This document shows, piece after piece, positions 21,478 to 48,300 of a stretch of 64,000 nucleotides of DNA (its first letter is position 1; the number at the start of each line of letters is the position of its first letter). Position numbers and translations under genes: made by a program. The notes beneath the pieces are model-generated. The model did not search any database and was not told where the DNA came from. It saw nothing but the letters and a program-made list of their open reading frames with translations. The stretch covers positions 1,885-65,884 of the forward strand of contig DATHDE010000085.1 in NCBI GenBank assembly GCA_035490495.1. Reading direction: 5' to 3'. This DNA is from Nitrospirota bacterium (GTDB lineage Bacteria; Nitrospirota; UBA9217).

Positions 21478-21520
21478 GATGAACCCTGTCTGCTCATGAA
21501 GAAGGCAATACTAATATTTT

Positions 21521-22051: not shown

Positions 22052-22145
22052 AGCGGCAGAGGAAGCATCGCGTTCATGCGAGCAGGTTGTACTTTAACAA
22101 ACAAACGGAGGAAAGTCAAAACCCTGTTTACCAATGGTTTTTTGC

Positions 22146-22173
22146 TTGACATCCGTGCTTTTTAGATTATAAT
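22146..22173 (+). promoter_or_regulatory. sigma70-type promoter for rpmH-rnpA-yidD-yidC
   Basis: TTGACA (22146-22151), a 16-nt spacer, then TATAAT (22168-22173). AAGGAG RBS at 22202-22207. Confidence 0.6.
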
Positions 22174-22215
22174 AGCCCACTGTCTTAAATCATATTCATG
22201 CAAGGAGTTAGTACG

Positions 22216-22353
22216 ATGTCGGAAACAACAGCGCAAAAGAGCAATCTGAAACAGAAACGGGCACAAGGATTCCGAAAAAGAATGAGCACGGCGTCAGGAA
22301 GAGAAGTCATCAACCGCCGAAGAGCCAAAGGAAGAAAACGCCTCGCGTTATAG
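22216..22353 (+). CDS. rpmH: 50S ribosomal protein L34
   Basis: Not in the ORF track (45 aa). My translation is [45 protein letters not shown], matching the L34 signature (GFRxRM...GRxVLxRRRxKGRKxL). Lies directly upstream of rnpA. Confidence 0.93.
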
Positions 22354-22371
22354 CATTGCGGGGTTTTCTGC

Positions 22372-22737
22372 ATGCCCTATGCATATCGTAAATGTGAACG
22401 ACTAAAAAAAAATATCGATTTTACCGCGGCAATGAAAGGAAAAAGACTGTCGATAGACGGTCTTTCTCTTTTTTATACGATTAACAGCAGCACAGAAAAT
22501 TTCAGAGTCGGGATTTCCGTAGGAAAAAAACTGGCTAAAGCAGCGCAACGAAACAGACTGAGGAGGCGCATCCGGAACTGCATCATGAAAGCACTCCAGG
22601 ATCATGCACGTGGATATGATATAGTATTTGTTGCAAAAAAGGAGCTGCTGTGCGCTGACTATCGAAGAATTTGTGACGTTGTGAATAAATTATTGATTCG
22701 CACTGTTCTTCATGGAAAAAACGGGGAGGGCAGATAA
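22372..22737 (+). CDS. rnpA: ribonuclease P protein component
   Basis: 121 aa, basic. RNR-like motif (AAQRNRLRRRIRN). Position rpmH-rnpA. Confidence 0.9.
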   Translation: MPYAYRKCERLKKNIDFTAAMKGKRLSIDGLSLFYTINSSTENFRVGISVGKKLAKAAQRNRLRRRIRNCIMKALQDHARGYDIVFVAKKELLCADYRRICDVVNKLLIRTVLHGKNGEGR

Positions 22738-22739
22738 AC

Positions 22740-22949
22740 GTGAAGTGGTTGTGCATTACCATGATTACGATGTATCGTCGCTACCTTTCCCCGGTGTTGC
22801 CGATGTCATGCCGCTTCACGCCGAGCTGTTCGGAATATGCGTTGGAAGCATTTCACAAAAAGACCGTCGTACATGCGATCGTACTGACGGTAGTCCGCAT
22901 CTTTAAATGTAACCCGTTTCATCCCGGCGGGTACGACCCGGTACGATAA
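22740..22949 (+). CDS. yidD: membrane protein insertion efficiency factor YidD
   Basis: 69 aa. YRRYLSP...CRFTPSCSEYA...HPGGYDPV signature. Confidence 0.92.
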   Translation: MKWLCITMITMYRRYLSPVLPMSCRFTPSCSEYALEAFHKKTVVHAIVLTVVRIFKCNPFHPGGYDPVR

Positions 22950-22964
22950 GTTTTCGGAGGTTTC

Positions 22965-24671
22965 ATGGAAACGCGCAGGTTTCTTCTTGCAATATCTCTT
23001 TCACTCATCATTTTTATCCTCTACATGAAATTCTTCGCCCCGACACCCCCGGAAACACAGCCGGCAAACGATGCGACGAATATGGCAGAGACACAGAAGA
23101 AAGTCGCGGAAAAGCGTGAAAACACAATACCTGAGCCGTTGAAATCGTCGAATCCGGCGTCAGTGAAAATTGAAAAGGCTGTAGCAGGGAAAGATATCGT
23201 TATCGAGACAGACCTCATAAAAGCGGTTGTAAACACAGCAGGCGGGGTGATCACCAAGTGGGAGCTTAAGCAGTACCGAGAAGCAAATAAGAGCGAGGTA
23301 GGTATCGGTGTTATATATAAAAAGATCACCGGACAAATGCCAAAAGAGGAAAAGCCAAAAAGAGAACTTGGAAACGTAGAGCTGGTGCCTGTCTACGAAG
23401 GCGTGGACCGGAAGGACATGTCCTATCCATTAGCGATGGTACCGCTTGAGAAAGATTTGAATAAACTGTCAGGCGTAAATTATGAGACAAGCAGCGGCTC
23501 GTTGCTTCTGAGCAAGGATAAGCCAAAGGAAACATTGACGCTTGTCTACAATGGACCAGGCGGCATTATCATAGAAAAAAAGCTGACTTTTCATAATGAC
23601 ACGTATGTCGTCGATATGGACATCAGAACCAGCGGATTTGACGGTTATACCATTTCTCTGGGCACAGATTTCGGCTTAGCAGACAAGGTGAGCTCCGATG
23701 CAAGCGGCCGCGTAGGTGTGGCGGACGTACTCGATAAAAAATTTAGAAATGAAAAAATAGGCGATCTCAAGGGTGAAGAGCAGCAGGCGGGATCTGTGGG
23801 GTGGATCGCGCAGGAAGACAAGTATTTTACCGCGGTTTTAATATCAAACGGCAACGGCATTATATCAAGAAAAAAGACTGTGGAACCGAAAGCAATTGGT
23901 GATCTTCTGACAACGGACTTGACCGTCAAGGAACAGGCCTCAGCTCGGACATTCAAACTTTTCGCAGGACCCAAGAGCTATACTCTGCTGGAAGCACAGG
24001 GCCAGGGTCTGGAGCAGATGGTGGATTACGGGTGGTTCGGAATACTTGCGAAACCAATGTTCTGGCTCCTGACGAAGTTTTACATTTTTACAAAAAACTA
24101 CGGCGTTGCAATCATTCTCCTCACCATTGTGGTGAGAGTACTTCTGTTTTATCCATCACTGAAAAGCGCAACGGCCATGGAAGAGATGAAAAAAATTCAA
24201 CCGCAGCTTATGGCGATCAGGGAGAAATTCAAGAAAGACCCGCAGCGGATGAACCAGGAGATGATGAAGCTTTACAAGGAGCACAAGGTGAATCCACTCG
24301 GTGGATGCCTGCCCATGCTGTTGCAGCTTCCGTTCTTTGTAGCACTGTATAACGTTCTGTCCGTTTCCATTGAACTGCGGCAGTCGCCGTTTCTGTCTTT
24401 TTGGATAAAGGATCTGTCGGTTTATGACCCTTACTATATTTTGCCGGTCCTGATGGGCGTAAGTATGATTTTCACAATGAAGATGACATCGACAACCGCG
24501 GATCCTCAACAGGCGAAAATTATGATGTTCATGAATATTGCGTTTATTTTCCTTTTCGCATGGCTGCCGGCTGGGCTGTTACTTTACATTACATTAAGCA
24601 ACGTGCTCTCCATTGTACAACAATTGTACGTACGACGGCTCATCGGTGCGGCGGAAACTCCTGCCGTGTAA
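22965..24671 (+). CDS. yidC: membrane protein insertase YidC
   Basis: 568 aa. N-terminal TM helix, periplasmic P1 domain, C-terminal 60-kDa IMP core (NYGVAIILLTIVVR...KVNPLGGCLPMLLQLP). Confidence 0.95.
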   Translation: METRRFLLAISLSLIIFILYMKFFAPTPPETQPANDATNMAETQKKVAEKRENTIPEPLKSSNPASVKIEKAVAGKDIVIETDLIKAVVNTAGGVITKWELKQYREANKSEVGIGVIYKKITGQMPKEEKPKRELGNVELVPVYEGVDRKDMSYPLAMVPLEKDLNKLSGVNYETSSGSLLLSKDKPKETLTLVYNGPGGIIIEKKLTFHNDTYVVDMDIRTSGFDGYTISLGTDFGLADKVSSDASGRVGVADVLDKKFRNEKIGDLKGEEQQAGSVGWIAQEDKYFTAVLISNGNGIISRKKTVEPKAIGDLLTTDLTVKEQASARTFKLFAGPKSYTLLEAQGQGLEQMVDYGWFGILAKPMFWLLTKFYIFTKNYGVAIILLTIVVRVLLFYPSLKSATAMEEMKKIQPQLMAIREKFKKDPQRMNQEMMKLYKEHKVNPLGGCLPMLLQLPFFVALYNVLSVSIELRQSPFLSFWIKDLSVYDPYYILPVLMGVSMIFTMKMTSTTADPQQAKIMMFMNIAFIFLFAWLPAGLLLYITLSNVLSIVQQLYVRRLIGAAETPAV

Positions 24672-24694
24672 AATATAATAACAAGATCAAAACG

Positions 24695-24730
24695 AAAAAA
24701 GGAGCGGGGTATTTAACCGCTCCTTTTCTT
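24695..24730. terminator. bidirectional Rho-independent terminator (yidC / OsmC-like convergent pair)
   Basis: AAAAAA-GGAGCGG-loop-CCGCTCC-TTTTCTT. A 7-9-bp stem flanked by an A-run and a T-run. Confidence 0.7.
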
Positions 24731-24802
24731 ATTGAGCAGATTCCACAACAACCCGCGATCCTCAGGCGAACGGCACGAGTCACAACAAGGCGTAAGGAAA
24801 TG

Positions 24803-25207
24803 TTACCCGACAATGGTTCTGATTGCAAACTTCGGGGGATGCATGATTGTTTTCTTTACTGCGCATTGATCCGCCACTTTGATCAGCGCTTTGTGGTATT
24901 TTTCGGGAAAATCAGGGGAAACCCGAATATCAATAGCAATAGTGTCAAGGACAGGTTTCCCTTCAGCGCCGGGAATATATTCGAGCCGCTGGGAGAGTGA
25001 AATACCGTCCGTTGGAATCCCGCGCTCCTGACAGAAGCTGAGCACATAGATCCCGGCGCAGGTGCCAATGGATGATAAAAAAAGAAGATAGGGACTCGGA
25101 GCCAGACCGGTGCCCCCCTGGGCGATCGGCTGGTCAGTAGGTATAATCACGTCATTGATGCGGGCGTCGACTCTTTTTCCGCCGGGAAAAGTGATCGTGA
25201 TTTCCAA
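24803..25207 (-). CDS. OsmC-family protein
   Basis: 134 aa. OsmC-like pattern (GLAPSPYLLFLSSIGTCAGI ... ADQCAVKKTI) with two conserved Cys. Confidence 0.8.
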   Translation of the reverse strand: MEITITFPGGKRVDARINDVIIPTDQPIAQGGTGLAPSPYLLFLSSIGTCAGIYVLSFCQERGIPTDGISLSQRLEYIPGAEGKPVLDTIAIDIRVSPDFPEKYHKALIKVADQCAVKKTIMHPPKFAIRTIVG

Positions 25208-25280
25208 GAGTACAGACCTCCATCATACAGCAGTTGGATTACGCATTCGGCACGATACGGAATTCAGAATTGCGCGGCAA

Positions 25281-25709
25281 TCAGCCGATATCTACGAGTT
25301 CAAGCTCAAATGTCAGATCGTTTCCTGCGAGAGGATGGTTCGCATCAAGCGTCAATGATGTATCTGTTGTTGCCATGACCGTGACAAGAACCGTTTTATT
25401 GTCTTCCTGGGTAAGTTCGAGGCGCTGGCCAACGGAAGCGTTCAAATCGGGCGGCAGCATGCTGCGTTCAATGGTCACAATCATTTCTTCGTGGCGGGGA
25501 CCGTAAGCAAGATCAACAGGGATGATGGCTGTTTTTGATTCACCCTTTGCCATCCCGGTAACGGCCTGCTCAAAACCTGCAATCACCTGTCCATTGCCAA
25601 GCGTAAAACGAATGGGATGCCTGCTGCGGGACGTGTCGAAAACAGTTCCGTTCGGAAGTTTCCCTGTGTAGTGAACCAGTACGGTGTCGCCCTGTTTAGC
25701 TCGCATCAT
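25281..25709 (-). CDS. FKBP-type peptidyl-prolyl isomerase (SlyD-like)
   Basis: Start moved to MMRAKQGDTVLVHYTGKL, with an AAGGAG RBS upstream. FKBP core plus insert-in-flap region. Confidence 0.88.
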   Translation of the reverse strand: MMRAKQGDTVLVHYTGKLPNGTVFDTSRSRHPIRFTLGNGQVIAGFEQAVTGMAKGESKTAIIPVDLAYGPRHEEMIVTIERSMLPPDLNASVGQRLELTQEDNKTVLVTVMATTDTSLTLDANHPLAGNDLTFELELVDIG

Positions 25710-25913
25710 GTTGTCTCCTTCACACGAAAACTGTGCGATATTGAGAAATAACATACAGAATATGTTTTGTGCAATTTACCCCATCTGACCACTCTTCGCA
25801 ACTACTAAAATAGACAAATAAGATATGTTCAGTCGTCAGAGATCAGTGAATAAGGGGCGCCAGCTTGACTTTGAAAAAGTAATACGATATTGTACAAAAG
25901 GAGGAAGGATGGC

Positions 25914-26612
25914 GTGGAAAGCAAGATTTATTTTGAATATGTGTTTAAGTTCAAAAAAGGTCAGGACAAAAAGTTTCTCATCCAGCTTGACCGAAAAACG
26001 CTTGCATTGGAAGCAGCGCGAAAGCAAAACCCGCCGCTGTGGGCGCTGTTAAATCATAAGAAGTGCAGTAATTGTCCGGTTGACGCCAAGATACAATTTT
26101 ACTGTCCTGTAGCATTGAACATCGTCGACATTGCTGAACAGTTCAAGGATATGGTGTCCCACGAAGAAGTGGTGGTCACCGTCCGAACGGAAGAGCGCGT
26201 TTATGCCAAAGAAACGACCGTCCAAAACGGCCTGAGCCCGCTCATCGGCATAATCATGACAACGAGCGGTTGCCCGATTTTGGAGCATTTAAAGCCGATG
26301 GTCAGGTTTCATCTGCCTTTTGCTGACCTTGATGAAACAGTGTTCAGAATGGTTTCTATGTATCTCCTCGTTCAGTACTTTCGCTATCAGGACGGAAAGG
26401 ATGCTGTATGGCGTCTTGATGGCCTGACTAAAGTTTACGCAGCAGTAGGTATTGTAAACCGCGATTTTGCGGAGCGACTCAGGGATGCTGCGAAAAAGGA
26501 CGCCAACTTGAACGCACTCGTGAATCTGGACTGTTTTGCTTCGATGGTACCGCTCGTTGCTGATGAGACAATGAAGGCGATTCGGCCCTATTTCAATGCT
26601 TATTTGGAATGA
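25914..26612 (+). CDS. hypothetical protein with Cys motifs (CxxC, YCP, SGCP)
   Basis: The track ORF starts at TTG 25890. GTG at 25914 lies 9 nt after the AAAGGAGG RBS (25897-25904). No family recognised by eye. Confidence 0.6.
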   Translation: MESKIYFEYVFKFKKGQDKKFLIQLDRKTLALEAARKQNPPLWALLNHKKCSNCPVDAKIQFYCPVALNIVDIAEQFKDMVSHEEVVVTVRTEERVYAKETTVQNGLSPLIGIIMTTSGCPILEHLKPMVRFHLPFADLDETVFRMVSMYLLVQYFRYQDGKDAVWRLDGLTKVYAAVGIVNRDFAERLRDAAKKDANLNALVNLDCFASMVPLVADETMKAIRPYFNAYLE

Positions 26613-26642
26613 GCTTGCAACTTCGCCAAAAGGGAAAAAGGA

Positions 26643-27413
26643 ATGAAGTCAGTAGTAAAAAGCATATGCTTTCTTTGTTGTATGGCGGTCGTTATGAGCT
26701 GTGCGCCAAAAAAACCGACACAACCGTCTTCAGCGCAGCAGCAGACGCAGGGTGCAACAAAGCAAAAATCAAAGCCAGCGTCACAAAAACCATACACTGT
26801 TCTCGGAAAACGTTATGAACCGCTTGAATCCTATATGGGATTCGTTCAAACAGGAACGGCAAGCTGGTACGGAAAGGATTTTCATGGAAAGAGAACGAGT
26901 AATGGTGAAACCTATAACATGAATAACATGACAGCTGCTCATAAAACGCTGCCGCTCGGAGTATTCATAAAAGTAAAAAACACTGATAATGGAAGGGAAA
27001 CAATTGTGCGTGTGAATGATCGAGGCCCTTTTGTAAAGGAGCGAATTCTGGATTTATCCTATGCAGCGGCAAAACAGCTGGGTGTCGATGTCGTAGGAAC
27101 GGCACCCGTCAGGATCGAAGCCTTGGGATACCAAGGTGCGGAACAGGATCGCTACAGGGCTTTGGAAAACTATGATAAAGGAGTCTATTCCGTTCAGATC
27201 GGATCTTTCAAGGATTTACGAAACGCAGAGCGGCTGATGAGCGAAATGAGAAATATCTTCGGCTTCTCTGAAATAGAGCACACAACGGTAAACGGAGAGC
27301 ACTTTCACCGCGTCTATGCGGGAAAGTTCACATCGTTGAAGGCCGCTGAACAGGCTGAGGAAGAGTTTTCGACCCATGGATACCCTGGCAGCTTTGCCGT
27401 ATCGCTCGAATGA
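26643..27413 (+). CDS. rlpA: septal-ring lytic transglycosylase RlpA with C-terminal SPOR domain
   Basis: Lipoprotein signal (AVVMSC), DPBB motif (GTASWYGKDFHGKRTSNGE...AAHKTLPLG...VRVNDRGPF), SPOR-like tail (YSVQIGSFKD...RVYAGKF). Confidence 0.9.
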   Translation: MKSVVKSICFLCCMAVVMSCAPKKPTQPSSAQQQTQGATKQKSKPASQKPYTVLGKRYEPLESYMGFVQTGTASWYGKDFHGKRTSNGETYNMNNMTAAHKTLPLGVFIKVKNTDNGRETIVRVNDRGPFVKERILDLSYAAAKQLGVDVVGTAPVRIEALGYQGAEQDRYRALENYDKGVYSVQIGSFKDLRNAERLMSEMRNIFGFSEIEHTTVNGEHFHRVYAGKFTSLKAAEQAEEEFSTHGYPGSFAVSLE

Positions 27414-27648
27414 CAATATCATTTCTTAAAAGACGGTTCATCGTCCACCACCAGTCTATAGTCCCGCCGCCGGATGTTCATTAGCTGCCGAGCCCTGCAG
27501 GAAATACGAAGCAGCTGTAAAAAAATTGTTTTACGAGAAAAAAACAGAACGAAACAGGAATGTGTTTCGAGATGTCCGCAGAAACATAAGTGACTGTCAA
27601 ATTTCTCACAACCGCTTGTACCCCGGGATTCATCGAGGAGCGAAAATC

Positions 27649-28419
27649 TTAGTGATGACGATGTGACTGAGCAACGCGGGATGCGTGCACGGCTGCATTA
27701 TGGTCTTTAAGATCCTGCACCAGGTTGTCGATTTGATCTGCGGAAAGAATATTTTGTTGCACAAAGAAGTCACCCAGCCGCGCCTGATGCGAGCGCTGGT
27801 ACGATAGAATTGTATTAACCTGGAATGCAGATAGTAGATGCAGGAGAACTGCTTTTTCACCGAAAAGAATCGGTCGGTTGCGTACCCCGAGGATTTTGCC
27901 GAGACCGACAGCGTCAAGCCATCCCCACTGCAACGCAATATCGCCGACGGAAGGACGCTGTTTCCGTTGACAGATGAGAGCGTTGAGCATGGTGCTGAAA
28001 GAAATCTCACCGCGATAATAGAGATATTGTCCTATATGGAGAATCCGTTTGGGAATCATGCCGGTATAGTATGTCCCGGAATGACTTTGTCGAAGGGAAT
28101 CGGACGTTCGATGATAAGCTGGGGTCCGTTCTGGTTTAGTCGACTCGTCAAGAGATGAGGAAATCTGCTCACGCTGTCTGAAAAAGAGATTCAAGGTGAC
28201 ATAAGCAGCAAGTATGTCTCGAAACAGGGCAGTTTGCTTTTCCTGGACATGAACCGGATCTTTAGTAAAAAGATCGGGATGGTTTTCCTTGGCAAGCTTA
28301 CGGTAGGCCGACTTTACGCAGCTCGGACGCAGATACGTAATCAGGAAGTTGCGGTTGATAGTGACCTGGTTGCCAAAAATGGTTCTGCAGGCAGCTATGA
28401 CATCGCTTTCAGTGATCAT
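27649..28419 (-). CDS. J-domain protein with C-terminal Leu-rich helical repeats
   Basis: AYRKLAKENHPD (HPD motif). The ATG at 28419 overlaps the purL TGA (ATGA at 28416-28419). The track alternative is GTG at 28440. Confidence 0.75.
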   Translation of the reverse strand: MITESDVIAACRTIFGNQVTINRNFLITYLRPSCVKSAYRKLAKENHPDLFTKDPVHVQEKQTALFRDILAAYVTLNLFFRQREQISSSLDESTKPERTPAYHRTSDSLRQSHSGTYYTGMIPKRILHIGQYLYYRGEISFSTMLNALICQRKQRPSVGDIALQWGWLDAVGLGKILGVRNRPILFGEKAVLLHLLSAFQVNTILSYQRSHQARLGDFFVQQNILSADQIDNLVQDLKDHNAAVHASRVAQSHRHH

Positions 28420-33869: not shown

Positions 33870-34620
33870 TAATGACCTCCTTGGCAAGGGCAAGGTAGCT
33901 CTGGGCGCCGCGGGAACGAATGTCATACAAAAGAACTGGTTTTCCGTGGCTAGGTGCTTCTGACAGCGAGACATTCCGGTGAATGACCGTTGAATATACC
34001 TTGGAACCAAAATACTTGCGAACCTCCTGCGCCACCTGGTCGGCAAGGTTGTTTCTGCTGTCATACATGGTCAGCAGAACACCTTCAATCGAAAGCTGGG
34101 GGTTCAAATCCTGCTTGATGAGCTTGATAGTATTGGTGAGAGCGGACAACCCCTCAAGGGCGTAGTACTCACACTGCACTGGAATAAGCACTCCGTCGGC
34201 CGCGGTCAAGGCGTTTACGGTCAACAGGCCGAGTGACGGCGGACAATCGATGAAAATGTAGTCGTAGGAACTCCTGCAATCCGCAATGGCTTTTTTCAGT
34301 ATCCGCTCCCGCGAAATGGTCTGGCTGAACTCAACGTCGACACCGACGAGATTTATATTGGCTGGAATGACATCGAGCCACGAGAAGTGCGTTGATATTT
34401 TTATATCATTGATTTTTTTTTCTGATGTAAAGAGGTCGTAGGTACTGCCTTTGACAATATTTGGATCAATACCCATACCGCTCGTGGAGTTGCCCTGGGG
34501 ATCGCAGTCGATGAGCAGGACTTTTTTTTCAGCAGCCGCGAGCGAGGCAGCGATATTTACTGCGGTCGTGGTCTTTCCAACGCCGCCCTTCTGGTTCGCG
34601 ATGGCGATGATCCTGCCCAT
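33847..34620 (-). CDS. parA: chromosome partitioning ATPase ParA/Soj
   Basis: 257 aa. Deviant Walker A NQKGGVGKTTT. Confidence 0.95.
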   Translation of the reverse strand: MGRIIAIANQKGGVGKTTTAVNIAASLAAAEKKVLLIDCDPQGNSTSGMGIDPNIVKGSTYDLFTSEKKINDIKISTHFSWLDVIPANINLVGVDVEFSQTISRERILKKAIADCRSSYDYIFIDCPPSLGLLTVNALTAADGVLIPVQCEYYALEGLSALTNTIKLIKQDLNPQLSIEGVLLTMYDSRNNLADQVAQEVRKYFGSKVYSTVIHRNVSLSEAPSHGKPVLLYDIRSRGAQSYLALAKEVINAKAGAR

Positions 34621-34954
34621 GAAGCTCCTTGTTTTTTCGGTGGGATAAACAGGATTAATCTAACATAGGCAGACTATAAAAGGAAGAAAAAATTGAGGAA
34701 CAACGGCTATCCCGCGACGGGTTAGAGAGTGCCTCCACACGATAAGGAAAGAGCGAAGCGTCGCGAGTAACCGATTCAGGGAAGTCGCGTTGTGATGGGG
34801 AGCCTCCGGCGCATGCCGGAGGTGACTCCACGTTGTGAATGAATAATATTATGCAGGCATGTTTGAAGACACCGCTGTTCAGGAAAGGCTGCAGCGGTAT
34901 CTTCTCGTTGCTTTCAAGTGCTATTTTAATAAATGTATTTTCTTAATGAGAATA

Positions 34955-35188
34955 TTATAGAAGCAGCCCACTGATTACGAGAATATATCCGATACTCCGG
35001 ACACCGACCAGCACGGTTTTTAAGCTAGACGACCATCCCATAAGAATTGAAAAATGAGAAACAGCATACATGAAAAAACCAAGGCCTACGAAGAGAAATG
35101 CTTTTACACCTGAAGACAGGTATCGTCTGACACCCAAATAAACAATCAACAAACTAAAGAGAAGATTCACTACGGTAATAATATCCAT
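34955..35188 (-). CDS. small hydrophobic protein (about 3 predicted TM helices), unknown function
   Basis: ATG at 35188 lies 6 nt after the AGGAGG RBS, which overlaps the stop of the upstream gene. 77 aa, almost entirely hydrophobic. AT-rich. Confidence 0.6.
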   Translation of the reverse strand: MDIITVVNLLFSLLIVYLGVRRYLSSGVKAFLFVGLGFFMYAVSHFSILMGWSSSLKTVLVGVRSIGYILVISGLLL

Positions 35189-35198
35189 GAACACCCTC

Positions 35199-36074
35199 CT
35201 ATTGAAACAGCAGATTTACTTTTTGACCTTCCTGCAGACCAAACCGTTTTATGTCAGTATGAGTTAATGTAGCATCTTGTTTATTGTCGGTGTGCCATGT
35301 AATATTCAAAGCACCGCATTCTTGGTCATCATTATAGAGAAGGAGCGATGTGCGCTGCGAGAACTCAGGAAAAGCCGTCTTCGATAATCTTACAAAATTC
35401 TGTTTTGCACCAAGACCAGAATCTTTCTTTACTACTGCACCGGAAATCTGCTGGAAGGAGTTGTCAATAAATAAAAGGCAGAGCGCGCAGGCCATTATTT
35501 GTGAGTTTTCATTCGCAAAGACGCGGCTGAACCAGTTGTTCAGACTGCTTGTGTCCTTGGGAATGCCATATTCACTTAGTCGTGTAAGTGATATTCTAAG
35601 ACCCTGGCGCAGCCCATCAAGTCTTTTATTGTAAATAGATTCATCAAATGAAAAGGCAGAATATTTCCTTTGAATTTCTTGGGTTACAATTGCTGCTGCA
35701 CTTCGGCCGCCCTCGATATTTGGTGCGTACAGACAAGAAAGGATAATAAAAAGCTTTATCAATCTGATAGGAGGGGGGGGGCTTGATTTATAAAGAAAGG
35801 AAAATGCCGAAGGAAACAACTTTTCAACTGTTATTGCTTGAGTGTTTTTGGGATCGATTTTTCCCTGTGTAATATTAATATTTTTTATTGAATCTCTTAA
35901 GAGAGAACCAATTGTTTGTTCAGCTGACAAGGTCCGTGATTTTAATGAAATAGGTAGCCTTCCGTAAATGCCGGCTTCAATAAGTTCATTTTGCGATGTT
36001 GTCAGGTAGCACGAACCATCCTCAATATTTTTTTTTTCAATTTCTGCCAATAGAAGATTGAGTCCGTTTGTCAT
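35199..36074 (-). CDS. hypothetical protein, no recognisable domain
   Basis: Track ORF starts at TTG 36083; the first ATG is 36074 (MTNGLNLLLAEIEKK). AT-rich codon usage unlike its neighbours. Contains a C9 tract encoding PPPP. Confidence 0.6.
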   Translation of the reverse strand: MTNGLNLLLAEIEKKNIEDGSCYLTTSQNELIEAGIYGRLPISLKSRTLSAEQTIGSLLRDSIKNINITQGKIDPKNTQAITVEKLFPSAFSFLYKSSPPPPIRLIKLFIILSCLYAPNIEGGRSAAAIVTQEIQRKYSAFSFDESIYNKRLDGLRQGLRISLTRLSEYGIPKDTSSLNNWFSRVFANENSQIMACALCLLFIDNSFQQISGAVVKKDSGLGAKQNFVRLSKTAFPEFSQRTSLLLYNDDQECGALNITWHTDNKQDATLTHTDIKRFGLQEGQKVNLLFQ

Positions 36075-36082
36075 AATTAGCA

Positions 36083-36091
36083 ATTATAGCA
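36083..36091 (-). promoter_or_regulatory. extended -10 promoter (TGCTATAAT), implying a leaderless or near-leaderless mRNA
   Basis: Minus strand reads TGCTATAAT-tgctaatt-ATG. Only 8 nt separate the -10 hexamer from the ATG at 36074, and there is no RBS. Confidence 0.45.
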
Positions 36092-36311
36092 CAATCTGCA
36101 AGAAAGCGAATACTTTTGATAACATTTTATCTGAATACACGTTTCAGTAAATTTTTTCAAAGAACGACATAATATTATGTCCATACCATTTGTTTATACT
36201 GATAAATTAAATGGATATCGGCATTAGATTACACGATGTTTTACTAAGATGATATCGCCCAAGGCTGCCCATAAATGGACTTTTATAATGGTCATAATTT
36301 AATTGAAAAGG

Positions 36312-36327
36312 ATGTTCCACGTGGAAC
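36312..36327. repeat. copy 1 of ATGTTCCACGTGGAAC (contains the perfect 14-bp palindrome GTTCCACGTGGAAC)
   Basis: Read directly from sequence. In this copy the palindrome extends to 16 bp (TGTTCCACGTGGAACA). Lies 115 nt downstream of the Clp1-like gene. Confidence 0.9.
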
Positions 36328-36441
36328 AAAAAGAGGAGCTAGGGGTCATAAACAGGCAGCCAGAAAATAAAAAAGACTACTCGACCTTCTTGAATTTATT
36401 TTACGGTTTTTCCCCAGGAAAGACATTCACCGGCTCAAGGA

Positions 36442-37515
36442 TTACACTTGACCGAGCTCCCCTCCAGCAGGACTGACGCGCATTGAACCGAGTGAAATGT
36501 TGCGGACGCCAGAAATGTCACGCAATGGTGTGATCAGGCGGATGGAAAGTTCCCGCAAGTCAAGCGTTCGTAGAATGCCGAGACCAAGGCAAAGGTTTCT
36601 GTCATCATTCAAGCCGATAAGCAGATGATCAAGCTCCGAACGTTTGACTACCATGACCTCGCGTACCGCGTATTGTTCTTTCGCTGTAAACAACTCTGTT
36701 TCATTATAATCACCTTCCGTAATAAGATATAGACGGTCTGACGAGATTTCTGCGTGGATGACAATGGCATGGAATATTTTCGATAATCTATTGATGTCCC
36801 GGAAGCCAAGCCGCTCACCTGTTCCGAGACCCGTGCCATGCACGCCGACGTCATGGAGAGAGATTTCCTGAAAATCCGCTCCACGAAAATAATCTTTAAA
36901 ACGCTGCTCACGGTTTGCTCTGCGTGCTTCATTTGTTGATTTCCTTGCTTCAGGGGCACAGGGCAGCCTGCGTATCAATAGACCGGAGCGATGAGAATGC
37001 GGTGTGAGAAGATGCTCAACCTCGGTTCCCTTCTGCAGAGCGGCAAGGTAGTGAGGCGTTATCAAGTCGATCTCGTGGAACTTCAGCTCGCGGGCGGCGC
37101 CACCGCCGATCAATCCGCAGGTATTTATCAGAATGAGATCAGGTTCCAGCGTATGAGCAAAGAGCACGAGCTTTTGCAACCCGACAATCATCTCAAGAAG
37201 TCTGCCAACAGGAGAACTGTTGCCTATGAAGCGCATGATCATGGGATTTCGCCTGCGCAGCAGGTCCAGGGCCTCCGAATATTGTGTTAATGAGATCACT
37301 CCCGGCGGACCAATGAAAGGCTGACCCGGATCAGCATCAATCCAGACGAGTTTTTTACGCGAGCGGCAGAACAACCCGGTTAAGTAGAGACCGAAGGTTG
37401 TCTTGCCTGAACCAGAGGCTCCGATTACCATGACCGTGCCATGGTGGACTTGAACCTCATCAGCGAACTCCCGCCATTCAAGTGGTATTTGTAGAGTTGA
37501 ATTGACCATGTTCAT
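36442..37515 (-). CDS. Clp1/Grc3/Nol9-like P-loop protein (putative polynucleotide 5'-kinase)
   Basis: 357 aa. Walker A GASGSGKTT (res 32-40), then WIDADPGQ and INTCGLIGGGAAREL in the order typical of the Clp1 P-loop domain. Confidence 0.6.
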   Translation of the reverse strand: MNMVNSTLQIPLEWREFADEVQVHHGTVMVIGASGSGKTTFGLYLTGLFCRSRKKLVWIDADPGQPFIGPPGVISLTQYSEALDLLRRRNPMIMRFIGNSSPVGRLLEMIVGLQKLVLFAHTLEPDLILINTCGLIGGGAARELKFHEIDLITPHYLAALQKGTEVEHLLTPHSHRSGLLIRRLPCAPEARKSTNEARRANREQRFKDYFRGADFQEISLHDVGVHGTGLGTGERLGFRDINRLSKIFHAIVIHAEISSDRLYLITEGDYNETELFTAKEQYAVREVMVVKRSELDHLLIGLNDDRNLCLGLGILRTLDLRELSIRLITPLRDISGVRNISLGSMRVSPAGGELGQV

Positions 37516-40278: not shown

Positions 40279-41649
40279 CTATTTGCCGATACAGAAGCTG
40301 TTGAATATGCGTTCAAGGATGTCCTCGGTATGCGTTGCGCCGACTATAAGCCCCAGGCTGTCCAGGGCGGCACGCAGGTCCAGGGCTATGAATTCAGGCG
40401 ATTGGAGCCCGGCAGCGCTTTCGTGAGCGCGCTCAAGACTGCTGCGAGCCTGTTCCAGCTCCTTTTTATGGCGTGCATTGATTGCCCAGGAATGGTCACG
40501 CGCGGGAATGCTGCCTTGCAGAACACAGCCTGCCAAAAAATCCTTCAGCTCCGTAAGGCCGGCACCGGTCCGGCATGAAACGGCCACCTGGCGGCTTGGG
40601 GTGTCGAGATGTTCTATCCCGCGCGGCAGGTCCGATTTGTTTATTACTGCAATCGTCTGTTTGTGCTTGACGCTCTCCAGAACCTGGCTATCTTCGGGAT
40701 GGAGGGGCTGCGAGCCGTCGAGCACAAAAAGGATGATGTCCGCAGCCTTGACGGCAGCAAGGCTCCTGCGCACCCCCTCCTGCTCAACGAGATCATGCGA
40801 ATGTCTGATGCCTGCCGTATCGAGTATCTTGAACGGTACCCCGTTGATATTGAGATATTCTTCGAGCACGTCGCGCGTTGTTCCGGGGATGTCCGTGACA
40901 ATGGCGCGGTCCTGCTTGAGCAGTGCGTTCAAGAGAGATGATTTTCCGACATTCGGCCGGCCGACAATGGCTGTTGCACAGCCGTTGCGGAGAATCCGGC
41001 CGAAGTCATGCGTCGTAATGAGCTCGGCGACGCGTTTGATCAGATGGGAAATCTCCCCTGCCAGCGGTTTGCCGCCCGGGGTCACGATATCCTCCTCGGG
41101 AAAATCAATACCCGCCTCAACCGAGGCGAGCAGTGAGAGCAGGTCCTCACGAAGTGCGCCAATTTCACGCGACACTGCGCCCAGCAGCTGCTCATTTGCC
41201 GCACGGTGGGCAAGCTCCGTCTTGGCGCTGATGACATCCATGACCGCTTCCGCCTGGGCCAGATCGATCCTGCCATTTAAAAAGGCGCGCTTGGTGAATT
41301 CTCCGGGTTCAGCCATGCGTGCCCCCTGTTTCAGCAGGAGCGCAAGCGTGCGCTGAAGCGGCAGCATGCCGCCGTGGCAGTTGATTTCGACAACATCTTC
41401 CCTTGTGTACGTTGCAGGCGCGCGCATTACCGTTACCAGAACTTCATCAACCATATCCCCGGTTTCGGGGTCAACGATGCTGCCGTATCGGATGGTATGC
41501 GAAGCCTGGGCGCTGATATCGCCTCGTACTCGCGCGCGAAACAATGCAGATGCGAGTCTCACCGCATCTTTGCCGCAGATGCGGATGATCCCGATGCCGC
41601 CCTCTCCCGGCGGTGTTGAAACGGCACATATGGTATCGTCCAGCAGCAT
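40279..41649 (-). CDS. mnmE: tRNA modification GTPase MnmE (TrmE)
   Basis: 456 aa. G-domain GRPNVGKSS and DTAG, with the C-terminal CIGK motif. Confidence 0.96.
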   Translation of the reverse strand: MLLDDTICAVSTPPGEGGIGIIRICGKDAVRLASALFRARVRGDISAQASHTIRYGSIVDPETGDMVDEVLVTVMRAPATYTREDVVEINCHGGMLPLQRTLALLLKQGARMAEPGEFTKRAFLNGRIDLAQAEAVMDVISAKTELAHRAANEQLLGAVSREIGALREDLLSLLASVEAGIDFPEEDIVTPGGKPLAGEISHLIKRVAELITTHDFGRILRNGCATAIVGRPNVGKSSLLNALLKQDRAIVTDIPGTTRDVLEEYLNINGVPFKILDTAGIRHSHDLVEQEGVRRSLAAVKAADIILFVLDGSQPLHPEDSQVLESVKHKQTIAVINKSDLPRGIEHLDTPSRQVAVSCRTGAGLTELKDFLAGCVLQGSIPARDHSWAINARHKKELEQARSSLERAHESAAGLQSPEFIALDLRAALDSLGLIVGATHTEDILERIFNSFCIGK

Positions 41650-41745
41650 GCGCGTATATTACCATAAAGAGCACATCCTAAAAAGCATCTATTTTGCAAC
41701 AGGCAGAAATCGGAACCTTTCTGAATGTATCTGCGACGTTATTTA

Positions 41746-43719: not shown

Positions 43720-44313
43720 CTATAAGCCGGTTGATTGAACGCCGAGGGAAAATCGTTTTCTGTTTTTCAGCAAATCAACGTCCTTCTGAAGGTTGCTTCG
43801 CGCCCGCGGGTCACCGACCTCCTGAACACGCCGATGCAGGCTTTGGATCAGGGCCCCGGCATACGTGTGCGGCTTGACCACCGGCGCAAGAATTCTCCAG
43901 CCGTTCTCCGTCTTGGTGAGTCTGAAAGTGATCCTCTCCCCTTTCCGGTAAAAAGCGGTTCTGTTCGGCGCGTAATCGCCGGTTACCGCATAAAAGACAT
44001 CAACCTCCGCGCTTCCCGTTTTGTGCCTGACCTCGCCGATCCTGAACGAATTGATAATAACGACGTGGTCCCGGACCGGCTCATCAGCCGACTGCACAAG
44101 GCTTCGTAGCAGCGGCAGCGCTGTTTCCGTAGCCCGGGACCAAAGGCGTCCACCGTGTGCATCCAGTTCACAAAACGACTGCACCGTTCGTTCGGGCGTC
44201 ATGATTTCAATGTCCTCATGTCTGATCGCTGCTTCGGTCGGGGCGGTTGCCTTCTCCGAACACGCAGGAACAAAATATATGATTATTCCGAGGAGGATCC
44301 AGAATCTTTGCAT
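43720..44313 (-). CDS. hypothetical lipoprotein
   Basis: Start moved to MQRFWILLGIIIYFVPAC (signal peptide plus lipobox, AAGGAG RBS). No family recognised. Confidence 0.65.
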   Translation of the reverse strand: MQRFWILLGIIIYFVPACSEKATAPTEAAIRHEDIEIMTPERTVQSFCELDAHGGRLWSRATETALPLLRSLVQSADEPVRDHVVIINSFRIGEVRHKTGSAEVDVFYAVTGDYAPNRTAFYRKGERITFRLTKTENGWRILAPVVKPHTYAGALIQSLHRRVQEVGDPRARSNLQKDVDLLKNRKRFSLGVQSTGL

Positions 44314-44353
44314 GTGCACTCCTTTATTGAATGCTATGTGCTTCAAGCGCATT

Positions 44354-44367
44354 ACTATAGCATAAAA
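44354..44367 (-). promoter_or_regulatory. extended -10 promoter motif TTTTATGCTATAGT (copy 1)
   Basis: Minus strand reads TTTTATGCTATAGT. The -10 hexamer lies about 40 nt upstream of the ATG at 44313. Confidence 0.45.
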
Positions 44368-44470
44368 TGAGAATTTAGGCATTTGCTGGTTGAACGATGG
44401 ACTGCAAAAGGTGTTAAAAAAAGGGGGATCAGAAAAAAAAGCAGAACAACGCAGAAAACAGAACATGGTG

Positions 44471-45142
44471 TTATCGGTTTAGTGCATTTTCAATCGCCAT
44501 CTTGTCGGTTGGTCCGATGTTCGTGAACTTGACACCGTACAGATACGTATCCAGACGTGGATCTGTCTGTGTAGTCCTGGCTATTTCGCCGTATCCGCTG
44601 ATATGCGTTCCATCGGGCAGGAAAAAAGAGAAATAAATACCATCGCCCAGCAGTAATTCTTGTTCGGCTTTAATGAGCATACCGCTCGTGCTGATATTTT
44701 CGGTCCAGAAAGGCCGTGGACGGTTCTTAAATGCACCTTGAATGGCCAGGGCAATCGGCGCGCGGTACTGCATACGCGGTGCGACATTCAAGAATTTGTG
44801 CATCTTAATATGAAGCAACGCAATATCGAGGGGCAGGGTAAAAAGCGCATTGGCTTTACACAGCCTGCATCGATCACGATGAGCAAGCGTGTCCTTGCAG
44901 ATGAGTATGGTGGCGACTTCGCGCAGTTCATGCGATTTCCTGATCGTGTTAAAAAGTTCCTCCGTTTTCATACCGGGCAGCTCGAGCTGGGTCACAATGA
45001 GATCAACCCGCTCTTTGGAGTGGATCTTGAGGATTTCATTGTTCGTGCCTGCGGAAAAAACCTTGATCTCCGACCGGTCCAGATAGCTGCTTTTTTCTGT
45101 TAAAAGCTGTCGCAGATCATCCGATAACAAGACCTTTTTCAC
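44471..45142 (-). CDS. degenerate receiver (REC-like) domain fused to a PilZ domain
   Basis: The N-terminus is CheY-like, but the phospho-acceptor position reads Q (DLIVTQLELPGM). C-terminal PilZ motifs RMQYR (RxxxR) and NISTSG (D/NxSxxG). Confidence 0.75.
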   Translation of the reverse strand: MKKVLLSDDLRQLLTEKSSYLDRSEIKVFSAGTNNEILKIHSKERVDLIVTQLELPGMKTEELFNTIRKSHELREVATILICKDTLAHRDRCRLCKANALFTLPLDIALLHIKMHKFLNVAPRMQYRAPIALAIQGAFKNRPRPFWTENISTSGMLIKAEQELLLGDGIYFSFFLPDGTHISGYGEIARTTQTDPRLDTYLYGVKFTNIGPTDKMAIENALNR

Positions 45143-45210
45143 ATTAGCACTCTCCCACGCATTCTGTCTGCCAAACGCGTAAATCAGGACTGCCTTGCAT
45201 GCACAGGAAA

Positions 45211-45224
45211 ACTATAGCATAAAA
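45211..45224 (-). promoter_or_regulatory. extended -10 promoter motif TTTTATGCTATAGT (copy 2)
   Basis: Identical 14-mer on the minus strand, about 70 nt upstream of the GTG start at 45142. Confidence 0.45.
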
Positions 45225-45246
45225 AGGTTTATGCAAGCTTTCTGGC

Positions 45247-45579
45247 CTAAAAATCAGGAAACAGTTTAATAACAAGAGATTTTCCGTCCGCAGTCGGGCA
45301 TTCCGCCAGCAGGATTCCGCCTTCAATATAATCAAGTTTAAAATTCGAGAATCCCCGAGCAACCAGCTTTCTTGCATCCGCGGGGCATCCATTCTCGCAA
45401 CCGGCCACACCTCGTATCATTTTCGGCAACAGGCCGTTGAAATCCAGCCCCCGCGACAGGGAGCCCGCCTCAGTCATGAATGATTCGATCCGTTTTGCCG
45501 TTGCTTCGATATCGATTTTGAATGGATTCTCAATTGGTATGGACAAAGACTTGCCATTCAGCTTAACCTCGAACTCCAT
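45247..45579 (-). CDS. small hypothetical protein (GCENGCP motif)
   Basis: Start moved to MEFEVKLNGK (GGAGGGG RBS). 110 aa. No family recognised. Confidence 0.5.
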   Translation of the reverse strand: MEFEVKLNGKSLSIPIENPFKIDIEATAKRIESFMTEAGSLSRGLDFNGLLPKMIRGVAGCENGCPADARKLVARGFSNFKLDYIEGGILLAECPTADGKSLVIKLFPDF

Positions 45580-45671
45580 AATAAACCCCTCCCCCCAATG
45601 GCGGCAAAAGGCCGTTTCCGAAGCGCCCTCACAACCCGCATGGCGATCCTCTATAAAAAGTCCTCTTGCTT

Positions 45672-45989
45672 TCAACGGCGCTTTTTTAGATTACGATCGA
45701 TTTTTGCATTAGCCAGCTTCTCCTTTAAAGATGCTTCTTTCCGGGATCGCGTCAGTTTTTTGAAAGCATATTCCTTGCGCAAGGCTTGTGAGCGTCCGCG
45801 GCAGCTTTCCTGGTAAACGATATACACGGGGCGCCTGCTCCTTGTATACCGTGAACCGACGCCCGTATTATGCTGCAAGAGGCGCCGCATAATATTATTT
45901 GTAATGCCCGTATACAGCGAACCGTCCCCGCATCGCAGAACGTACATGCACCAGCCGCCAGATCCGCGAGCCGCATCTCGTGAAGGCAT
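45672..45989 (-). CDS. GIY-YIG nuclease-superfamily protein (UPF0213-like)
   Basis: MYVLRCGDGSLYTGITNNIMRRLLQHNTG...GSRYT matches the GIY-YIG signature. About 100 aa. Confidence 0.8.
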   Translation of the reverse strand: MPSRDAARGSGGWCMYVLRCGDGSLYTGITNNIMRRLLQHNTGVGSRYTRSRRPVYIVYQESCRGRSQALRKEYAFKKLTRSRKEASLKEKLANAKIDRNLKKRR

Positions 45990-46175
45990 GGGCAGATTGT
46001 AACCGAGTCGACAGGTTGAATCAAGGAGAGATTATGATAAAATACAATGTAACCGTTTTAAATACTTGTCGGCATGTCAACATTAGTCTATAATTAGACG
46101 CTAGTGACGGCATGAGTTTAATAAAAAGAATAATCATGAGCAGCGTCCCGCTCGCCGGAGGCCCGAATATCAGCC

Positions 46176-46802
46176 ATGGATAAGAATATATTTGAAGTGG
46201 GCCAGGTCCTTTCATTCGAATCCTATTATAAAGTGCATCTGCCGTCGCCTGTCATCGGCTGGCAAAAAGACGAATTTGTTTTAACGAAGGCGCTCTATAT
46301 CGGAGGCCAGCCAGCAAAACTGCAGGCCGATGATACGGTCAGAATCCGTTTTCTTAAAGACGGGACTGCTTACGGATTCGAATCGAAAATCATTACTGTA
46401 CAATTTTATCCATTTCCTCTTATGTTCGTCAAGTATCCGACTGATGTGGAACATCTGAAGATCAGAATCAGCACGCGTTACAAAGTCAATATCATCTCTA
46501 AACTGCTCCTTGCTTCAGGAGAAGTTGTCGCCGATGATGCTTCTCTTATCGATATTAGTGAGGGCGGGTGCGGACTGAAAGTGCCGGTGCAAGAGGGACG
46601 TACGCTGTCGCCGGAAACTGATTACGAGATTGCCTTCAAAATCATGGACAGGGAAGTAAGAATGGGCTGCGGTGTCAGGAAATTCGACCAGCGCGGAAAA
46701 TATGCAGTTATAATGGGAATGGAATTTACAAAGATAGCTCCGAAAGACAAGGAAACGCTCGCCTTTTTTATCGATTTTCTCTCCCAAAATGCGATGCTAT
46801 AG
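46176..46802 (+). CDS. PilZ-domain protein (YcgR-like, PilZN plus PilZ)
   Basis: 208 aa. RISTR (RxxxR) followed by DISEGG (DxSxxG). Confidence 0.8.
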   Translation: MDKNIFEVGQVLSFESYYKVHLPSPVIGWQKDEFVLTKALYIGGQPAKLQADDTVRIRFLKDGTAYGFESKIITVQFYPFPLMFVKYPTDVEHLKIRISTRYKVNIISKLLLASGEVVADDASLIDISEGGCGLKVPVQEGRTLSPETDYEIAFKIMDREVRMGCGVRKFDQRGKYAVIMGMEFTKIAPKDKETLAFFIDFLSQNAML

Positions 46803-47063
46803 CTGAACGCCTGCCGTTTGCAGAGATCAAGATGACTATCCAGAAGGAGCCTGTGTAGGCAAGCAGGGCTGAGGACTCGCCGTGGTGGCTGATGAAGTCA
46901 GAAATCCCGCGGAGCGAAGCGGTCAGGCCATGGAAAACCAGCCAAGCGCATCGAGTTGATTCAGCAGGCAGCAAGCGAGTGTGTGCATGCCATGAAGAAG
47001 GGCAGTAATTCTTCGTGTTCTCTGCGTCCTCCGTGGTGAAGAGTACTTTTCAAGAATTTTGCA

Positions 47064-47795
47064 CTATCTAAATACTTCCCGAAGCAGCTCGGTCACGCGT
47101 GCAGCCGGATCTTTCCGTATCTTAGCTTCTTCCTTCCCTACCATAAGAAACAGCCCGTCCAATGCCCTGCTTGTGACGTAGTGATCAAGATCGACTGTTT
47201 CATGCTTCAAGAAAGGTATCCTTTTCGCTTCGTCCATCAACCTTTTGAATGAGCGTGTCACCCCAACGCTGTTCATGGCAGCTGAGACCTGCGGATGGAA
47301 TGCCTGATACAGTTTTTCAGACGTCTTGCCCTTCAGGTAATCTGTTGCAGCGGTCTCATGCCCGCGCAGAATGGAGATCGCGTCCGGGATGGTCATTTCC
47401 TTTATTGCTCCGAGAAAAAGGTCCAATGCCTGGGGCGCGGCCTTTTCTGCCGCCCTGTTCATGGAAAGGAGAAATTCATCCACCTCACGGCCCAGGCCTG
47501 CGGAGCGCAGCGTATGTTCGATCTTGCGAACGTTCTCAGGCAGAGGAATCGTGATGGCGGGATTTTTGAAATAGCCGTCGATCTTCGATACGAGTGCTAC
47601 ACTATTGCGGCTGCCAACGGAGAGCGCTTCTTTCAGGCCTGAAGCAACCTTTTTGCTGTCCAGCGGTGAAGAGGACTTTCCCTCGTCGATATACTCGTGT
47701 TTAAGATCATTCAGCTCGTCAAAGATATTTTTTGACGATGCTATTGACGGGACGAGCAGCAGTGCGCTGAGAATGAATAACACAATAAATCTCAT
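47064..47795 (-). CDS. DUF4197-family secreted protein
   Basis: Signal peptide, then GLKEALSVGSRNSVALVSK...MNRAAEKAAPQA...ATDYL pattern as recalled for DUF4197. Confidence 0.7.
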   Translation of the reverse strand: MRFIVLFILSALLLVPSIASSKNIFDELNDLKHEYIDEGKSSSPLDSKKVASGLKEALSVGSRNSVALVSKIDGYFKNPAITIPLPENVRKIEHTLRSAGLGREVDEFLLSMNRAAEKAAPQALDLFLGAIKEMTIPDAISILRGHETAATDYLKGKTSEKLYQAFHPQVSAAMNSVGVTRSFKRLMDEAKRIPFLKHETVDLDHYVTSRALDGLFLMVGKEEAKIRKDPAARVTELLREVFR

Positions 47796-48300
47796 ACGTA
47801 TCCTCCGTAGCGATATCGGATGATGTGCAATCCGAACATACGTTTTTCGTTATCTTTCTTTTCGTCGAGACTGCATGTTCCGGGATTTTCTGCCTTGCCG
47901 ATGAACCGGTCTTGATCATTCGGGCTATCGGCGTTCATCTTGTTATCTCGAAATACACAAGTATGAGTAGTTATGCGACTGTAGCAAATAATGCCGCAGC
48001 GGTCAATAATAAAACCAGGACCTTGTAGCGTAACGCATGAATATCGTTATACTTCGTTCGGGACGGAGACTGACTTGAAGAGCATCCACCCCCGAAGTTG
48101 CAGCTTATCATTATGCATAATGCACAGGGCATGTTTCGCTTTTTCGCCGTAAATCTTCCACCTTGTTGAATTACTAAAACCGCTGTGTTACACTGCTTTC
48201 AGTCAGTTAATTCTACCTTATATAATGCAGTGCAATGAAAAGTCACCCTTACCCCGGTTCGCACCCCCACAGGGAGAAGGGATTATTAAAGTATACATAA

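Follow-up and report, generated by a model that had tools for sequence, protein, structure and literature searches.

The locus described here raises the question of what a 291-amino-acid (aa) protein and a 77-aa membrane protein, encoded back to back in AT-rich DNA of an uncultured Nitrospirota bacterium, do together, and whether the two genes are a settled part of the chromosome or a foreign cassette. Both genes lie on the minus strand of contig DATHDE010000085.1, in the 64-kb stretch that was analysed as a whole and that we call the window; we refer to the 291-aa open reading frame (ORF) as L and to the 77-aa ORF downstream of it as S. The original prediction, which had been made from the letters of this DNA, described the pair as an orphan and apparently leaderless operon and offered the layout of toxin, abortive-infection or defence modules as an explanation. 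From our point of view the evidence leans, if only slightly, towards another answer, namely that L-S is an autonomous, chromosomally inherited two-gene operon, formed by a gene pair so far found only in Nitrospirota, whose products would make up a membrane-anchored complex of two subunits and serve a physiological role specific to this lineage.

Gene L (35199-36074, minus strand) runs from an ATG at 36074 to a TAG at 35201-35199 and encodes a predicted cytoplasmic protein, and gene S (34955-35188, minus strand) runs from an ATG at 35188 to a TAA at 34957-34955. The Shine-Dalgarno (SD) sequence of S, an AGGAGG at 35195-35200 (minus strand), overlaps the TAG of L, with exactly 10 nucleotides (nt) between the stop of L and the ATG of S and 6 nt between the AGGAGG and that ATG, which implies translational coupling. 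An SD at or overlapping the L stop, with 1-23 nt from this stop to the start of S, is also present in L001, L008, L010, L011 and L042 (such numbered handles denote other loci and contigs that carry relatives of the pair). Judged by this layout, L-S is a translationally coupled operon whose arrangement is kept among relatives; the two-gene, translationally linked operon of the original prediction, with its AGGAGG/TAG overlap and its 10-nt gap, was thus borne out, as were all of its other sequence-level statements when checked on the letters of the window. The ORF of L cannot extend further upstream, since an in-frame TAA lies within the TATAAT hexamer that precedes it, and the family alignment (A2) favours the ATG as the start over a TTG at codon 9, which is the gene-caller choice for P0001. 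In the relative L001, a 610-bp contig of about 80% identical DNA that retains the order L-S-parA, S has a ratio of nonsynonymous to synonymous divergence (dN/dS) of 0.07 at a dS of about 1, and L keeps its last 34 residues in frame; both ORFs are therefore genuine genes, and both are under purifying selection, which is strong in S. Six near-identical contigs from peat metagenomes show the same arrangement as the window, with at most one synonymous change in L.

The pairing extends well beyond these close relatives. A search seeded with S only found L directly upstream in 7 of 8 species-representative genome loci (GTDB) and in 14 of 16 metagenome loci, the 14 pairs including the window's own population as well as L034, in which L is split by frameshifts. 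Searches that started from L led to four further cases, namely L010, L011 and L042, in which L is followed by S, and L008, in which an S-homologous ORF begins 1 nt after a 27%-identical L. The two genes stand together in more than 20 loci, so that the co-localised homologues whose absence had been named as grounds for abandoning the idea of a linked pair do exist, and by sequence comparison the pairing is maintained even between lineages whose L proteins are only 26-30% identical. All named genomes with the family are metagenome-assembled genomes (MAGs) of Nitrospirota (labelled Nitrospirota, Nitrospiraceae or Dissulfurispiraceae), and the MnmE and PGI encoded in the window are 54% and 68% identical, respectively, to their counterparts in such MAGs, in agreement with a Nitrospirota origin of the window. 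Gene order around the pair is kept within clades and the neighbourhoods differ between clades, a pattern that fits a vertically inherited, lineage-specific physiological module rather than a mobile defence system.

The term orphan could not be upheld for either protein. An exhaustive phmmer search with L against 1.84 billion representatives returned 29 cluster representatives, 20 of them with E ≤ 1e-10, most of which are about 290 aa long and 22-30% identical over the full length; a sister group of about 320 aa carries an insertion in the C-terminal domain. A word-index homology search with L returned only L itself (with the L family alignment: at least three proteins), a scan of genome contigs with L alone gave no match, and alignment A2 is too diverse for deriving search patterns. 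L has no significant match in Pfam, NCBIfam, PADLOC or PHROGs, the 20 family members compared with Pfam gave no convincing family match, and a sequence-profile search of the PDB reached a best E of just 0.02 and hence no solved structure by sequence. Few residues of the family are invariant (R151 and D274 in A2), and A2 has two related motifs near the C-terminus, namely KKDxGLGAKxGxxxLSK and LGLxDGDxVxL; an internal repeat (GLGAKxxxVxL / FGLxxGxxVxL) can also be seen in it.

What these motifs may stand for became apparent from structure prediction. AlphaFold2 gave a confident model of L on alignment A2, with a predicted local distance difference test score (pLDDT) of 92.2 and a predicted template-modelling score (pTM) of 0.86, whereas a prediction from the single sequence was unusable (pLDDT 41). 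The model comprises an N-terminal alpha/beta domain (residues ~1-75; helix, three strands, helix, strand), a middle domain of seven helices (~80-205) and a C-terminal double-psi beta-barrel (~207-291). Foldseek searches of the PDB and BFVD with this model matched only the C-terminal ~85 residues, which superposed on barrels of the VCP/p97/VAT type (7dbo, 7dg7, 7dww) with template-modelling scores of 0.73-0.78 on the target, a root-mean-square deviation (rmsd) of 2.2-2.5 Å over 85-87 columns and a probability of 1.0; UFD1 and designed symmetric barrels were also among the matches. Matches to RNA polymerase were set aside, as they superpose with an rmsd of 14-21 Å and reflect the polymerase's own double-psi barrel, not a match over the whole of L. 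In the model, the C-terminal domain of L is a double-psi beta-barrel, being about 85 residues long and superposing on solved barrels, and its sequence has the pseudo-twofold repeat with a Gly/Asp-type turn in each half; we infer that the repeat motifs are the GD-box of such barrels. The conserved motifs of L correspond to the two barrel halves, so that their conservation would be largely structural. The unknown fold ascribed to L in the original prediction therefore gives way to a known one for the C-terminal third and stands for the remainder, for which no relative was detectable.

For S, the earlier description as a tiny three-helix membrane protein held, as hydropathy shows three hydrophobic segments. 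The loop between helices 1 and 2 is basic (RRYLSSGVK) and predicted to be cytoplasmic, and by the positive-inside rule this positive loop predicts an N-terminus outside and a C-terminus inside. In the alignment of 20 members (A4), N8, S44, H45, R64 and Y68 are invariant, all of them polar and within the helices. The S of the window matches Pfam DUF5985 (PF19447) with 15.5 bits and an E of 0.022, which does not reach the gathering cut-off of 27.3; 18 of the 20 S-family members match the same model, with a best E of 1.9e-5. DUF5985 comprises small bacterial membrane proteins, and S resembles the model over nearly its full length (residues 3-76 on model positions 4-82 of 86). By these sequence scores S is probably a distant, sub-threshold relative of DUF5985, a family that itself is without known function, so that the match adds no mechanism for S, and a literature search for DUF5985 and PF19447 returned nothing relevant. 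Across the family, S proteins have a median identity of 59% and L proteins one of 37%, and between the window and L010 the identity amounts to 64% for S, 54% for MnmE and 27% for L. In these sequence comparisons S is far more conserved than L, and also more than the housekeeping protein MnmE.

Taken in order, the steps that we propose are as follows. Coupled translation would provide L and S in similar amounts, and the two proteins would assemble into a complex at the cytoplasmic membrane, with S as anchor or core in the membrane, the basic loop that joins its helices 1 and 2 as the likely docking site, and L as the peripheral subunit. The barrel of L may serve as a peptide- or ligand-binding module, as in the N-domains of AAA+ proteins, where double-psi beta-barrels typically bind peptides, adaptors or substrates. 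The role of such a complex would be physiological, i.e. membrane-associated sensing, regulation or an accessory function in transport, and not anti-phage defence. Several points weigh against this reading. The contact between L and S is so far a proposed one, and the N-terminal two thirds of L, for which we found no structural or sequence relative, offer no readable function. S occurs alone in L020 and L037, and L occurs alone in L009, L013 and the 320-aa sister subfamily (L038, L039, L041), so that an obligate 1:1 complex is not universal. Lastly, the pair lies 13 GC points below its surroundings here as opposed to 0-6 points in other lineages, a drop that the reading leaves unexplained and that fits an old horizontal replacement.

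With regard to function, two other explanations deserve consideration. The toxin, abortive-infection or anti-phage module of the original prediction, in which we would picture S as a membrane-damaging effector and L as sensor or antitoxin, fits the generic layout of a soluble and a tiny membrane protein, tightly coupled and in low-GC DNA, and one S member matches Imm_superinfect, albeit not significantly (E 0.094). However, PADLOC yielded no families at E ≤ 1 for L or S, PHROGs just one non-significant match (E = 0.05), and tblastn no match among 72,556 plasmids and 50,697 phage records. Across the contexts that we examined, the identified neighbour families include no restriction, CRISPR, integrase or transposase family, and there was no recurrent siting in defence islands or mobile elements; a ParE_toxin gene occurs once, about 8 kb from L, and the identified neighbours are housekeeping, metabolic and signalling genes. 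The restriction of the named genomes to Nitrospirota MAGs and the gene order kept within clades point the same way, and S is more conserved than MnmE, unlike fast-turnover defence effectors. We hence consider a defence module very improbable and have dropped this part of the original prediction. A different idea comes from the neighbourhoods of the relatives, namely that L-S is an accessory or regulatory module for the uptake or sensing of small organic acids (C4-dicarboxylates, acetate, pyruvate, formate), in which S would join a membrane transporter or sensor and L would couple to cytoplasmic metabolism or signalling. In L011 and L031, the pair is accompanied by a periplasmic binding protein of the NMT1_3 family (which we take to be the family of TAXI-type TRAP solute receptors), followed by a sigma-54 activator, a histidine kinase and a sigma-54 response regulator, a set that resembles DctB/DctD, as well as by flagellar rod genes; L023 retains the regulators of this context, and the binding-protein gene was not found at the equivalent place. 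Fumarase and malic enzyme precede the pair and UbiD and RibD follow it in L018, L021 and L036, malic enzyme precedes and fumarase follows it in L017, where DctM and an ORF that fuses an acyl-CoA synthetase to an L domain are also near, and L015 has fumarase without malic enzyme. Further contexts hold a formate-dehydrogenase-like complex and PilMNO (L019, L032 and the P0015 contig), adjacent Cache-domain sensors (L014, L015, L039), CstA and acetate kinase (L038), or DUF485, an SSF permease and acetyl-CoA synthetase (L042). Carboxylate transporters, enzymes and sensors hence recur in independent contexts, but the category was picked after the data had been seen, such genes are abundant in anaerobic Nitrospirota, and they are absent from several contexts, namely the window (rsmG/Clp1-like, parAB), L010 (where yidC, mnmE, a gene for a PilB-like ATPase and chemotaxis genes are near the pair), L013 and L041. 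Neither L nor S resembles any known transporter subunit. We regard this explanation as doubtful and a link to organic-acid transport or sensing as only a lead.

The history of the locus can be considered separately. The finding of compositionally deviant DNA stands, as L (39.5% GC) and S (39.3% GC), together 39.5%, as well as the upstream spacer (34%) differ from the rest of the window (52.8%). One could imagine that the pair is not ancestral at its present place and was acquired horizontally from a lower-GC relative by insertion between the Clp1-like gene and parA, which would agree with a GC content at third codon positions of 35% as opposed to 47-63% in the flanking genes, with the 0-6 points by which the pair lies below its flanks in other lineages, with a location that differs from that in every other clade and with the position of the window L at the divergent edge of the family (27-30% identity). 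On the other hand, the order L-S-parA and the low GC content (35-38%) are kept in L001 at a dS of about 1, so that any transfer would be old and not ameliorated. No flanking repeats, tRNA or integrase genes were found at the locus, and other low-GC stretches are present at 18-28 kb and 44-48 kb of the window, so that low GC is not unique to L-S. We consider such an acquisition possible but rather unlikely; it concerns history and not function and is hence compatible with the chromosomally inherited membrane complex that we prefer.

How the operon is transcribed is a question of its own. The promoter-like element said to abut the first ATG is indeed present. The extended -10 element TGCTATAAT lies at 36091-36083 (minus strand), with its TATAAT at 36088-36083, and only 8 nt (tgctaatt) without an SD separate it from the ATG of L. 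The motif TGNTATAAT has three matches on both strands of the window as opposed to 0.85 expected, and by our own estimate about 0.007 chance matches would be expected 5-9 nt before one of the roughly 60 gene starts. The succession of TGCTATAAT, 8 nt and an ATG without SD is positioned as in leaderless genes, with a spacing at the long end of the usual range, and the predicted transcription start of L-S is the ATG itself or a position only a few nt from it. In the window lineage this promoter would give rise to a leaderless or near-leaderless mRNA, and although leaderless expression of L-S is plausible on these grounds, we regard leaderless or near-leaderless transcription as an even call. L042 has the same geometry in front of a 26%-identical L homologue (TTGACT-18 nt-TGcTATTAA-8 nt-ATG, without SD), there with a near-consensus -35; the layout with 8 nt from the -10 element to an SD-less ATG is confined to the window and L042, and L is immediately preceded by a TATAAT-like element in the window, L042, L017 and L009. 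Also the mnmE gene of the window (41649-41664, minus strand; ATG at 41649) shows TGGTAATAT and then 6 nt to an ATG without SD, and this leaderless-looking start indicates that leaderless starts may occur in the organism.

A serious possibility, even if it falls somewhat short of being probable, is that the operon is not leaderless, and that the promoter is located further upstream in the 367-bp AT-rich spacer or that transcription reads through from the Clp1-like gene. Translation of L would then start behind an AU-rich leader that has no SD, which seems to be the case for many genes of this genome. Among the L homologues, most have a leader of about 15-35 nt with an SD, the 8 nt between the -10 element and the A of the ATG exceed the usual 6-7 nt, the spacer contains other promoter-like sites 45-120 nt upstream (36196-36169 and 36151-36124), and 9 of the 18 genes neighbouring L-S are without an SD-like motif, so that the missing SD of L is not diagnostic alone. 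All of this counts against a leaderless start. However, the full-consensus extended -10 element is rare in the window and one of its three occurrences lies exactly at L, the upstream candidates score just 9 of 12 and are not commoner than in shuffled sequence (6 found, 4.2 expected), L042 shares the promoter-to-ATG geometry, and a terminator-like palindrome follows the upstream Clp1-like gene. Sequencing runs that hold the locus are of peat metagenome DNA, with no RNA run among those found, and a literature search on leaderless transcripts in Nitrospirae returned nothing relevant. Prompted by the neighbouring sigma-54 activators, we also looked by eye for a sigma-54 promoter (TGGCAC-N5-TTGC-like) upstream of L homologues and saw none, a formal search not having been made.

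The spacer between the Clp1_P-like gene and L (36075-36441, minus strand; 34% GC) comprises the promoter region and the aforementioned palindrome, a perfect one of 16 bp (TGTTCCACGTGGAACA, 36313-36328) that is followed by TCCTTTTCAA, lies about 115 nt past the stop of the Clp1-like gene and is flagged by a terminator scan. It looks like the terminator of the Clp1-like gene, and it could equally be the binding site of a regulator. Downstream of the operon, a GC-rich hairpin (GAAGATACCGCTGCAG...CAGCGGTGTCTTC, 34865-34904, minus strand), located about 50 nt past the stop of S and without a U-tract, is a candidate operon terminator. The S-parA spacer as a whole (34621-34954, minus strand, 334 nt) folds more stably than shuffled sequence (z = -3.8) and contains a second GC-rich hairpin at about 34799-34829 (CCTCCGGC-ATGC-GCCGGAGG). 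No Rfam family matches the spacer. In the 80%-identical L001 neither the spacer nor the 34865-34904 hairpin is conserved, which makes the assignment of this hairpin as terminator tentative; an Rfam search of 34500-36500 likewise gave no match.

In the window, the pair is flanked by mnmG, rsmG and the Clp1_P-like P-loop gene on one side and by parA, parB and a bactofilin gene on the other. The P-loop gene (36442-37515, minus strand), which lies between rsmG and L-S and is also present in L002-L004, encodes a protein of 357 aa that matches the CLP1_P P-loop domain (E 3e-29) and, weakly, NOL9_C; by these domain matches it is a bacterial Clp1/Nol9-type polynucleotide-kinase-like protein in an origin-proximal gene cluster. 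The probable replication origin region itself extends over 15897-19200, with dnaN (15897-17012) and dnaA (17100-18500) both on the minus strand, five DnaA boxes with at most one mismatch at 17747-18497 (a perfect TTATCCACA at 18478 stands beside an inverted TTGTCCACA) and a minimum of the cumulative GC skew at about 18 kb, i.e. about 17 kb from the L-S pair. The AT-rich spacer upstream of L was also considered as oriC and rejected, as it contains no DnaA box with at most one mismatch, the boxes clustering at 17.7-18.5 kb by dnaA, where the skew turns. The two other low-GC stretches of the window (18000-28000 and 44000-48000) have 42-49% GC as opposed to 53-58% elsewhere, the former comprising genes for DsrE-like, HD-domain, FKBP, DUF6901 and RlpA-like (DPBB_1-SPOR) proteins as well as yidC.

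Some of the other loci show peculiarities of their own. L036 retains the order malic enzyme-pair-UbiD, and what can be recognised of the pair there (2890-3414) is just a short fragment each of L (37 aa) and of S (39 aa), which may reflect decay of the pair or a poor assembly. Some 2 kb downstream from an ordinary L-S pair, L017 contains an ORF of 905 aa (7371-10088) in which a long-chain acyl-CoA synthetase (AMP-binding and AMP-binding_C_3) is joined to a complete L domain (617-904); this is either a true fusion or the result of a lost stop codon. The solo S of L020 (4193-4423) is a paralogue with its own SD and no L upstream, whose neighbours, as read by eye from their translations, encode a GIY-YIG-like protein and a protein with a periplasmic-binding domain; the same MAG has a complete pair on another contig, L015. 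Finally, the 3.8 kb right after the pair in L014 (6232-10030) have 43.5% GC, lack any ORF above 105 aa as well as Rfam matches, tandem repeats and Ns, and may consist of degraded genes, of genes with frameshifts from long-read assembly or of non-coding DNA.

What is new in these data is that L represents a family without a name, in which a known fold is set in a new domain arrangement, and that S is probably a distant relative of a known DUF. If our reading is right, a small unnamed protein family is thereby defined, L being without a Pfam or NCBIfam model, and the obligate-looking partnership of L with a DUF5985-like protein in uncultured Nitrospirota of peat and wetland provides a testable start for this DUF. 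One could further speculate that the two proteins constitute an undescribed membrane system of the Nitrospirota, in which S, with its invariant intramembrane Asn/Ser-His/Arg/Tyr cluster, would recruit L, a cytoplasmic protein of new architecture, through or alongside the barrel of L, and both together would act on small organic acids, by sensing or gating them, or pass signals to sigma-54 or cyclic di-GMP regulators. This is an improbable proposal at present, which, if true, would give a first functional handle on DUF5985-type proteins. The locus also holds a caution, since L seemed an orphan in a fast word-index search and its single-sequence structure prediction failed, where an exhaustive search and alignment-based prediction gave a confident model, and since low GC and a small membrane partner are insufficient for calling a defence module. 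The results have no bearing on a long-standing open question, and, the organisms being uncultured, their practical impact is modest.

L-S resembles some known systems in part and differs from them in other respects. Leaderless bacterial mRNAs are known from lambda cI and from many genes of Actinobacteria and Deinococcus-Thermus, and L is alike in having a -10 element few nt before an SD-less ATG. Its spacing of 8 nt is not the usual 6-7 nt, and in contrast to such mRNAs most L homologues are led by an SD. Two-gene toxin, abortive-infection and defence modules resemble L-S in the compact layout, the coupling, the small hydrophobic partner and the deviant GC content, whereas L-S is without a PADLOC match, lies off the plasmids and phages that were searched and has a highly conserved membrane partner. 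From Cdc48/p97/VCP and archaeal VAT, L differs in that it has neither an AAA+ ATPase domain (Pfam finds no AAA domain in L and the 20 family members, and L ends with the barrel) nor the second, beta-clam subdomain, and in that its barrel is C-terminal, after about 205 residues without a detectable relative; judged by its sequence, L is not a member of the Cdc48 family. With just 9-14% sequence identity between the barrels, homology beyond the common fold is not demonstrated. It is nevertheless the N-terminal barrel of Cdc48/p97/VCP, VAT and UFD1 on which the C-terminal ~85 residues of L superpose, and in both cases the two halves of the barrel carry G-x-x-V-x-L.

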